Of a DNA stretch of 64,000 nucleotides, positions 31,589 to 33,287 are shown piece by piece. Position 1 is the stretch's first letter. The number at the start of each line of letters is the position of its first letter. Under the pieces are notes generated by a model that worked only from the letters and a program-made list of their open reading frames with translations, made no database searches and was not told the DNA's origin. The translations under genes were made by a program, and so were the position numbers. The DNA is from Escherichia coli (GTDB lineage Bacteria; Pseudomonadota; Gammaproteobacteria; Enterobacterales; Enterobacteriaceae): NCBI RefSeq assembly GCF_029227855.1, contig NZ_CP074356.1; one strand, given 5' to 3'.

Positions 31589-31799
31589 GCGTTCATTAAT
31601 TTGATTTATTCTCATCCATCAGCGCTTTTAACTCCTCCGGCATAAACGGTGGTTTGCGTCGGTGCAACATCGCATGGCAATTAGGGCACACAGGCAGCAA
31701 AAAAACAAATGAGATCAAGGTAATATATCTTCACTTGCAGGCTTGAACAGCAGAAAATTTGCGAGCATGATCGCAATTATTTCACTGCCAGGGATATCA

Positions 31800-32672
31800 A
31801 TGGCTTCCAGTAAATCGCTACAGCAGGCAATTGCCAATATAAAAATCTGGCATAAGGGTGAACAGCGCGCACCGCATAAACCATTGTTATTGCTATACGT
31901 ATTAGCGGGATACCTGAATGGACATCCACGCCTTTTCGATTATGGATCGGAAATCTACGAACCTCTGCACAGTTTACTGGAACGTTTTGGGCCACAGCGT
32001 TCACAGTACCGACCTGATATGCCGTTTTGGCGATTACAAGGCGACGGATTCTGGCAATTACACAATGCCGAGCTTTGCTCAACAGCAGGGAGCAGCCGAC
32101 AACCGCCAGTGAAGGAACTGAACGAATACCACGTTGCAGGCGGTTTCGATGAACAGCACTACGCCCTGGTAACCGGCAATAAAAAACTCATCAATACTCT
32201 GGCGCAACAGATACTCGAAGCGCACTTCACCGAGAGTATTCAGGAAGAAATTGCTGACGAGCTGGGTTTTGATCTCCAGCAAATCCGTAAACAGCGCGAC
32301 CCGTTATTTCGCAAAAATGTATTACGCGCTTATAACTACCAGTGCGCGATATGTGGCTTTAATATGCGCCACGACGACACCACCGTCGCGCTGGAAGCGG
32401 CGCATATAAAATGGAAACAGCACGGCGGCCCTTGTGAAATCCCCAATGGTCTGGCGCTTTGCGCAATACACCATAAAGCCTTTGATAAAGGATCGATTGG
32501 CCTGGATGAAAATATGCGGGTACTGGTCTCGGATGCGGTAAACGGCGGAGGGATCGTTGAGAGATTATTCTGGGATTTTGACGGGAAAACTATTGCGTTG
32601 CCACAGGTGCGTAAAAATTACCCTTTTGAGGGGTTTGTGGAGTGGCATCGAAAAGAGGTTTTTAGGGGGTGA
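31800..32672 (+). CDS. HNH-family endonuclease with N-terminal domain of unknown function (candidate modification-dependent restriction enzyme)
   Basis: C-terminal motif AAHIKWKQHGGPCEIPNGLALCAIHHKAFDKG (H-N-H with flanking Cys/His); the track ORF starts at a TTG at 31743, the ATG at 31800 (MASSKSLQ...) has a better Shine-Dalgarno. Confidence 0.6.
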   Translation: MASSKSLQQAIANIKIWHKGEQRAPHKPLLLLYVLAGYLNGHPRLFDYGSEIYEPLHSLLERFGPQRSQYRPDMPFWRLQGDGFWQLHNAELCSTAGSSRQPPVKELNEYHVAGGFDEQHYALVTGNKKLINTLAQQILEAHFTESIQEEIADELGFDLQQIRKQRDPLFRKNVLRAYNYQCAICGFNMRHDDTTVALEAAHIKWKQHGGPCEIPNGLALCAIHHKAFDKGSIGLDENMRVLVSDAVNGGGIVERLFWDFDGKTIALPQVRKNYPFEGFVEWHRKEVFRG

Positions 32673-32984
32673 GGTAGCCATTATATATCTTTCACCTAGG
32701 ATTTTAAATGTAATAGATAAAGTATTTTCTGACACCGAAAGTAGTATTTATGAGTACATAGCCACAAATCAATTTTAAAATCTCAATATAAAATACGTTT
32801 ACAAATATTCTAGTCAGAGTAAATATATATTCATTATAAGAGAATCCAATTATTAACCAATCGAAATTACAAATTAAAAAACAATTGGCATGTTGAATTG
32901 TACACTAATTTATATACATAGTAAATTTACATCTATTCATGATATAATTATCGTGATATCAATTCATTAATCAGGAAAATCATA

Positions 32985-33287
32985 ATGGAATTGTTAAATA
33001 CTTATGATGATAAAGAAACAGCTGAAATATTTTTTGAAAAAATAGACGGAGAGAAAAGATTAGCAAGTGAGAGAGATGCTACAGAAACAGTCTATAACCT
33101 CTTCGGGCAACCAACATGGAAAAACTTTTATCTTCTTGATATGTTTAACCTAAAAGAGTTACAAGGGATTATAGAGTGTAGAAAAAATGGACAGCCGTTC
33201 GACCAGGAACGACACAGGGAAATAATAAAAATGCTTGAATATGCAGCAAAATCGTTTGACCTAATTATTCCTGCACATTGGCGATAA
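32985..33287 (+). CDS. Hypothetical 100-aa protein
   Basis: AT-rich ORF with AGGAAAA Shine-Dalgarno 6 nt upstream of the ATG; convergent with the helicase gene; no recognisable motifs. Confidence 0.35.
   Translation: MELLNTYDDKETAEIFFEKIDGEKRLASERDATETVYNLFGQPTWKNFYLLDMFNLKELQGIIECRKNGQPFDQERHREIIKMLEYAAKSFDLIIPAHWR

Follow-up and report, generated by a model that had tools for sequence, protein, structure and literature searches.

The described enzyme that bears most closely on the gene considered here is EcoWI, a Mg2+-dependent, dimeric endonuclease (Lutz et al. 2020, PMC7461809) that recognises GpsAAC/GpsTTC, cuts at N7/N6 and leaves a 1-nt 3' overhang (PMC7461809). Hemi-modified sites are also cut, and substrates carrying two sites are preferred (PMC7461809). 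When EcoWI was expressed in E. coli, zero transformants were obtained with dnd+ plasmids (EcoB7A or SenC87), and the enzyme on its own was active and non-lethal in this host (PMC7461809). Star activity on unmodified DNA has been described in the presence of Mn2+ or when the enzyme is highly concentrated (PMC7461809). Four homologues at 27-28% identity have the same specificity, and a motif, 'KPzzLL...PF..W', is common to EcoWI and its homologues (PMC7461809). The enzyme already serves as a reagent, in EcoWI-seq (PMC9521924).

Two Streptomyces enzymes provide the structural reference for such nucleases. SprMcrA (Streptomyces pristinaespiralis; 7CC9/7CCD/7CCJ) has the same order of sulfur-binding domain (SBD) and HNH domain as the protein studied here, the same fold, and is likewise a nuclease that depends on phosphorothioate (PT) modification; it differs in needing Mn2+, in its variable cut distance and in its H-N-R motif, whereas enzymes of the EcoWI type work with Mg2+ and cut at a fixed distance. 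ScoMcrA (Streptomyces coelicolor; 5ZMM/5ZMN/5ZMO) has a homologous SBD in which the His, the basic residue and the Pro of the pocket are conserved, but is a protein of 561 aa with the order head-SBD-SRA-HNH, in which the SRA adds recognition of 5mC/5hmC. Its sulfur pocket is built from H116 and R117 with P165 as the floor; most homologues have Lys in place of R117, and A168 is less conserved among them (PMC6224610). From a wider perspective, TagI (6GHS, SRA-HNH) and E. coli McrA (6GHC) have a related HNH module and follow the same Type IV logic of a reader joined to an HNH nuclease, but their reader recognises 5-methylcytosine, not backbone sulfur.

We analysed a 64-kb stretch of E. coli chromosome (the window), which is collinear with strain MLI121 from 12045 to its end at 99.6-99.8% identity and 100% identical to it in the region of the nuclease gene and the adjoining 100-aa open reading frame (Table 1). 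The nuclease belongs to an enzyme type that is already known and that RefSeq already annotates correctly. It shares with EcoWI the species, the location of the corresponding gene in strain W, the length and the two-domain architecture; the locus differs from that of W in its downstream cargo, which is Type III-like plus SNF2 here and McrBC-like and others in W. Given that the enzyme type has been characterised biochemically and structurally, the value of our analysis for the nuclease lies mainly in its annotation.

Table 1. Features of the locus, with positions in the window
Feature	Position	Strand	Remarks
35-codon remnant of a divergent 216-aa 'ScoMcrA-head + HNH' endonuclease gene, dead here	31596..31700	-	91% identity to the CFSAN029787 C-terminus
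Longest open reading frame	31743-32672	+	309 aa from TTG; carries both peptides quoted in the preliminary description
SBD-HNH gene, predicted phosphorothioate-dependent restriction endonuclease, EcoWI orthologue	31800..32672	+	290 aa, RefSeq WP_000168560.1
Sulfur-binding domain (SBD), residues ~4-142	31809..32225	+	ScoMcrA SBD sequence match, AF2 fold, PF26340
HNH (beta-beta-alpha-Me) nuclease core, residues 182-236	32343..32507	+	Pfam HNH_2 PF13391, E = 1.3e-9
AT-rich spacer, 23.7% GC	32673..32984		weak promoter-like site at 32926-32954
100-aa conserved protein, WP_000421875.1	32985-33287	+	115 homologues; part of the cargo, separate from the nuclease
Perfect 15-bp hairpin between convergent genes	33290-33322		dG -22.9 kcal/mol, z = -7.07
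Minus-strand operon	33334..42750	-	DrmD-like SNF2, Type III-like Mod, Type III Res-like helicase
Type III Res-like helicase, 1126 aa	33334-36714	-	PADLOC REase_III 2326 bits
Type III-like Mod, frameshifted	36717-39853	-	PADLOC MTase_III 1097 and 1031 bits (two halves)
DrmD-like SNF2	39859-42750	-	PADLOC DrmD 664 bits

Gene call and domains of the nuclease

As judged from sequence comparison, the start of the nuclease gene is supported at ATG 31800 and the TTG of the longest frame was rejected, because WP_000168560.1 is annotated from this ATG in genomes that are 100% identical, because the NCBIfam profile NF045808 starts at residue 25 of the 309-aa form, and because orthologues of other genera, Klebsiella included, begin at the same Met. 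An AGGGA lies 5 nt upstream. The resulting protein has a mass of 33.2 kDa, and RefSeq names the gene as a phosphorothioate-dependent restriction endonuclease in genomes identical at the locus.

NF045808, 'phosphorothioated DNA-binding restriction endonuclease', matches the protein over its full length, with 438.2 bits against a curated cutoff of 180, covering positions 2-284 of the 284 in the model and residues 6-289 of the 290-aa form (25-308 of the 309-aa form). This match (E = 1e-131) and that of Pfam HNH_2 lie far beyond chance. The N-terminal domain is an SBD, the type of domain that reads PT DNA, an assignment that rests on NCBIfam, on sequence matches in the PDB and on a fold search. 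Residues 4-142 match the crystal structure of the ScoMcrA SBD, 5zmo_A, with E = 5e-8 (phmmer) and SprMcrA, 7cc9, more weakly (E about 6e-3). A Foldseek search with the AF2 model returned SBD chains of ScoMcrA or SprMcrA as all 13 of its top 13 matches (TM 0.79 to 5zmo_A), and the SBDs of these two enzymes were the sole significant PDB matches of the model. The model of the whole nuclease is of moderate confidence (mean pLDDT 62.7, about 40-55 in the HNH half) and was used for the SBD half only. The C-terminal half can be assigned as an HNH nuclease from its sequence, which also aligns with the HNH of TagI, 6ghs. Precomputed Pfam annotations of the 100%-identical protein cluster list both PF13391 (HNH_2) and PF26340 (DNA-SBD_ScoMcrA); our own Pfam scan gave HNH_2 alone, and PF26340 is taken from the precomputed annotations only.

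A preliminary description of this DNA had proposed a protein of about 290 aa with a C-terminal HNH motif and a possible sensor of modified DNA at its N-terminus, the architecture expected of a Type IV restriction enzyme. The length and the HNH domain are borne out, and the matches to NF045808, PF26340, 5ZMO and 7CC9 point to a sensing module and to a probable modification-dependent (Type IV / Type IIM) SBD-HNH enzyme. The same two families and crystal structures mean that the N-terminal domain, then called uncharacterised, is a known one, and the implied novelty of the enzyme falls away with its near-identical orthologue in E. coli W, which corresponds to the characterised EcoWI. Among the families that had been suggested for comparison, SBD was matched and SRA and EVE/YTH were not.

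The negative part of this comparison bears on what the enzyme recognises. It is conceivable that the target is a base modification (5mC, 5hmC or glucosyl-hmC), or that the protein is a non-specific or homing HNH enzyme, given that ScoMcrA also cuts 5hmC/5mC DNA and that EcoWI shows the star activity mentioned above (PMC7461809). However, the 5mC/5hmC activity of ScoMcrA maps to its SRA, and NCBIfam, PDB sequence and Pfam searches of the nuclease found neither an SRA nor an N-terminal head domain. EVE/YTH and other base-flipping domains are absent as well, the 290 residues being made up of SBD, linker and HNH. We thus regard recognition of anything other than PT DNA as extremely improbable. Membership in the ScoMcrA type (head-SBD-SRA-HNH) was also considered and rejected, as the protein has only 290 aa and matches neither SRA nor head; a ScoMcrA-like head occurs at this locus only in the separate divergent HNH gene, of which the window holds a remnant.

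The residues expected of an SBD-HNH enzyme are in place. H26-K27-P28-LLLL and P75-F76-W77 are present, fitting the motif KPzzLL...PF..W, and H26, K27 and P75, the predicted residues of the sulfur pocket, correspond to ScoMcrA H116, R117 and P165. In a comparison of 22 orthologues at 73-82% identity, H26, K27, P28, P75, F76 and W77 were invariant, as were the HNH and zinc residues C182, C185, H202, N216, C221, H224 and H225. At the position of the Tyr 'lid' of ScoMcrA, Y164, the protein has M74, and Met stands there in all close orthologues; R78 occupies the position of A168. Both are as in the E. coli W gene.

In strain W the gene occupies the same site, adjoining nanS and the same upstream HNH remnant, and the protein it encodes is identical to that of the window at 286 of 290 positions (98.6%). 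The four substitutions that distinguish the window allele (G156R, H208Q, F276Y and G278V) all spare the pocket and catalytic residues. The W gene is presumed to be the source of EcoWI. We infer this from the naming convention, from the described distribution of homologues and from protein size (calculated mass 33.3 kDa against 33.4 kDa reported for EcoWI; PMC7461809), because neither PMC7461809 nor PMC9521924 gives an accession for the enzyme. Functional transfer to the window protein does not depend on equating EcoWI with the W gene.

Proposed role and distribution of the nuclease

How might the enzyme contribute to defence? We are highly confident that the gene encodes a two-domain SBD-HNH modification-dependent restriction endonuclease, an allele of EcoWI, which acts alone on PT DNA. 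This reading draws on the family to which the protein belongs, on the folds of its domains, on its conserved key residues, on the near-identity of the gene to that of W and on its spread among genomes. PT-dependent cleavage and restriction of dnd+ DNA are assigned because of the 98.6% identity to the W gene, and PT dependence, site, cleavage geometry and in vivo role would be those expected by analogy with the EcoWI, ScoMcrA and SprMcrA literature.

We envision a scenario whereby the SBD holds a PT link by its Rp sulfur, in a small pocket of hydrophobic and cationic character formed by H26, K27, P75 and their neighbours, and reads the bases beside the link, the site expected by homology being GpsAAC/GpsTTC. 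The nuclease would act as a dimer, and with Mg2+ its zinc-stabilised C-terminal HNH domain would make a double-strand cut at a set distance of a few nucleotides (N7/N6 in the case of EcoWI). Where the host lacks a Dnd system of this specificity, PT-modified plasmids or phages arriving from a dnd+ donor would be destroyed. Consistently, no dnd or ssp genes were found in the 64-kb window, as judged from the annotation of the collinear MLI121 and an NCBIfam scan of the first 12 kb, and the gene is solitary in the manner of Type IV systems, with no cognate dnd cluster adjoining. By analogy, the strain probably rejects PT-modified (dnd+) plasmids and phages, and the nuclease would do so alone, needing neither the 100-aa open reading frame nor the Type III-like operon.

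The distribution of the gene raises the question whether it is still at work. It is matched at least partly in 4859 of 5426 complete E. coli genomes; in 1706 of the 5426 (about 31%) the match covers at least 80% of the query, which we take as full length. Only the 5' remnant of the gene is left in K-12, and FORC_031 and AR435 share an internal deletion of 428 nt; with deleted copies in so many E. coli strains, the gene must be dispensable. Such decay could extend to the window, where the frame would be intact but silent or decaying, left over at the border of a recombination hot spot with no role in defence. Besides the known deletions, this idea draws on the low share of partly matching genomes that retain at least 80% of the gene (1706 of 4859), on the divergent neighbour, already reduced to 35 codons, and on a search upstream of the nuclease for a strong promoter, which detected none. 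Against it, the frame is intact in the window, the residues of the pocket, of catalysis and of zinc binding are all conserved, and the identical protein is found in at least 15 genomes. Full-length orthologues at 73-83% identity in Citrobacter, Klebsiella, Enterobacter and Salmonella, four genera in all, indicate purifying selection. We therefore consider a relic unlikely and a working restriction enzyme the better account of the gene. In a protein search, the wider family comprised 4397 homologue clusters.

The leuX-nanS hot spot and its cargo

Defence systems gather at the junction of leuX and nanS, a hot spot of which the SBD-HNH gene forms the constant flank. Past the stop codon of the nuclease gene, homology to E. 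coli W extends for only 3 nt, to 32675, and at about this position the conserved gene gives way to variable cargo. Beyond it, E. coli W carries McrBC-like genes, a Type I RM system and other large systems; HS carries McrBC-like genes followed by the leuX integrase; and CFSAN029787 carries a Dcm-type methyltransferase, an AAA ATPase and a reverse transcriptase. In Combat11I9, a type II Zorya system lies on the other side. The window itself holds no tRNA gene, the leuX end of the island lying outside it.

Here the cargo begins with the 100-aa open reading frame and continues with the minus-strand SNF2-Mod-Res operon, which upholds the small defence island that had been proposed for this region. 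The mod gene is split into frames of 459 aa and 560 aa by a homopolymer that is 1 nt shorter than in MLI121 (T6 at 38480-38485 against T7), a frameshift that may be real or a sequencing error. Past the operon follows a CP4-57-like backbone with CbtA/YeeU, RadC and an antirestriction gene.

On the other side of the nuclease gene, the divergent remnant belongs to a gene that is intact in CFSAN029787, where the 216-aa protein matches the N-terminal head of ScoMcrA (5zmm_A 29-93) and the HNH of McrA. The same divergent arrangement of head-HNH and SBD-HNH genes is seen in K. aerogenes.

The 100-aa family

The 100-aa open reading frame is a real, conserved gene; the fold of its product is predicted with confidence (AF2 pLDDT 96.4) and has no known structural relative. 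Its 115 homologues are mostly exactly 100 aa long and retain 50-70% identity in other genera; searches of Pfam, PDB, PHROGs, NCBIfam and PADLOC gave no match. As the preliminary description had it, the frame is preceded by a Shine-Dalgarno sequence (AGGA, 8 nt upstream of its ATG). It converges on the operon, the gene facing it being that of the 1126-aa helicase on the minus strand. Between the two lies the hairpin, which is likely a bidirectional terminator; none of 200 shuffled sequences folded as well. A conserved non-coding module or RNA around the frame was also considered and rejected, since between genera the DNA is similar in the coding sequence only and no Rfam match was found around the frame, spacer included.

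Does this protein serve the HNH nuclease, as the partner or immunity protein that had been suggested, or as a dedicated regulator? The two genes lie on the same strand, 312 nt apart, the downstream one with its own Shine-Dalgarno sequence, and an SBD-HNH gene is found within 1 kb of a homologue in Salmonella and within 7.5 kb of one in K. aerogenes. However, E. coli W and HS carry the nuclease without an adjoining 100-aa frame, the joint block occurs in 51 genomes as opposed to the 1706 E. coli genomes with the nuclease, and in FORC_031 the frame is intact even though the nuclease gene is internally deleted. In Salmonella L025, the relative orientation of the two genes is reversed, and tblastn found no SBD-HNH gene within 10 kb of the homologues in Aeromonas, Vibrio, Marinomonas, Pseudoalteromonas and Arsukibacterium. 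The AT-rich spacer with a promoter-like site of its own and the break in homology at the nuclease stop codon further separate the two genes, and EcoWI is active and tolerated when alone (PMC7461809). A dedicated partnership with the nuclease is thus very unlikely. A toxin-immunity or partner pair was set aside, as neither co-occurrence nor co-orientation of the genes is consistent.

The gene travels instead with variable defence cargo that contains methyltransferases. In 10 of 10 distinct contexts examined, it directly adjoins a defence or RM cassette that includes a DNA methyltransferase, an association that is a lead rather than a result, the contexts having been viewed without a control set. 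The same SNF2-Mod-Res operon accompanies the homologue in Arsukibacterium, where it is convergent and its proteins have 66-83% aa identity, and in a metagenome, where it is co-directional. Homologues lie by DUF1156/DUF499 systems in Aeromonas and Marinomonas, by BREX in Vibrio, by tandem methyltransferases in Pseudoalteromonas, by McrBC-like genes and a methyltransferase in K. aerogenes and by a Type II RM system in Salmonella.

What is novel at this locus lies in the 100-aa family and in the part it may play beside defence cargo based on methyltransferases. As a tentative suggestion, to which we give a modest chance, this compact gammaproteobacterial family could be an unrecognised accessory of methyltransferase systems, acting as a regulator, an anti-toxin or an anti-defence factor, or could mark a hot spot of cargo exchange. 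More tentatively still than such an accessory role, the enterobacterial divergent pair of 'ScoMcrA-head-HNH' and 'SBD-HNH' genes may represent a ScoMcrA split into two genes, a pair that is degenerate in the window.

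The leuX-nanS interval

Between leuX and nanS lies a defence hot spot. Homology among strains breaks 3 nt past the stop codon of the SBD-HNH gene, which encodes an EcoWI-type phosphorothioate-dependent restriction endonuclease, and from this point (~32675) onward the adjoining content varies between the window and four E. coli loci (L003, L030, L031 and L032), the variants comprising McrBC-like genes, a Type I RM system, a Dcm-type methyltransferase accompanied by a reverse transcriptase, and type II Zorya. On the other side of the nuclease, the nanS ORF of the window is unbroken and aligns without gaps to K-12 nanS (97.9% identity). 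Despite this unbroken ORF, RefSeq calls the equivalent nanS in MLI121, E24377A, W and HS a C-terminally incomplete pseudogene.

Features of the window and of the comparison loci
Feature	Location	Strand
btsT/cstA-like, yjiA GTPase, mdtM, yjiM, yjiL and other genes	window 1-12044	
nanS	window 30581-31588	+
HNH endonuclease remnant (35 codons of a 216-aa protein)	window 31596-31700	-
100-aa ORF	window 32985-33287	+
SNF2-Mod-Res operon	window 33334-42750	-
mod	window 36717-39853	-
Homopolymer in mod	window 38480-38485	
Intact 216-aa HNH endonuclease gene	L031 (CFSAN029787) 8214-8864	-
HNH endonuclease and SBD-HNH pair	L017 (K. aerogenes) 17765-19449	
Operon copies (Arsukibacterium; metagenome contig)	L022 10339-19766; L026 4292-14171	

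An HNH remnant beside the nuclease gene

Next to the SBD-HNH gene lies the remnant of a second HNH endonuclease, whose N-terminus is similar to the head domain of ScoMcrA, the head-SBD-SRA-HNH enzyme of Streptomyces coelicolor. CFSAN029787 and K. aerogenes retain an intact copy, oriented divergently from the SBD-HNH gene. Unlike in ScoMcrA, the head-like part is encoded separately, as if ScoMcrA had been split over two genes.

The SNF2-Mod-Res operon and its strain background

The neighbouring three-gene operon, encoding a DrmD-like SNF2 protein, Mod and a Res-like protein, recurs in Arsukibacterium (66-83% amino acid identity) and on a metagenome contig, in the latter case with a RhuM-like gene inserted ahead of Res. 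PADLOC annotates the operon as DrmD plus Type III RM, and the Res-like protein receives no name from any NCBIfam model. In the window mod, the gene for the Type III-like methyltransferase, is broken into ORFs of 459 and 560 aa because a homopolymer is 1 nt shorter than in the largely collinear strain MLI121 (T6 versus T7), whose counterpart is intact (1040 aa). This frameshift could represent genuine inactivation or a phase change, or else a homopolymer sequencing error. Over its first ~12 kb the window lacks collinearity with MLI121, where iatD and other genes occupy the corresponding position; the window strain is therefore related to MLI121, but different from it.

The 100-aa family

The 100-aa ORF belongs to a conserved family with a very confidently predicted fold (pLDDT 96.4), its homologues being drawn from loci L004-L011 and L016-L029. 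Known relatives of the family were sought and none was found, and it is rare, with 77 representatives among 1.84 billion proteins. Counted without a control set, a methyltransferase-containing defence or RM cassette adjoins the gene in all ten of ten distinct contexts.
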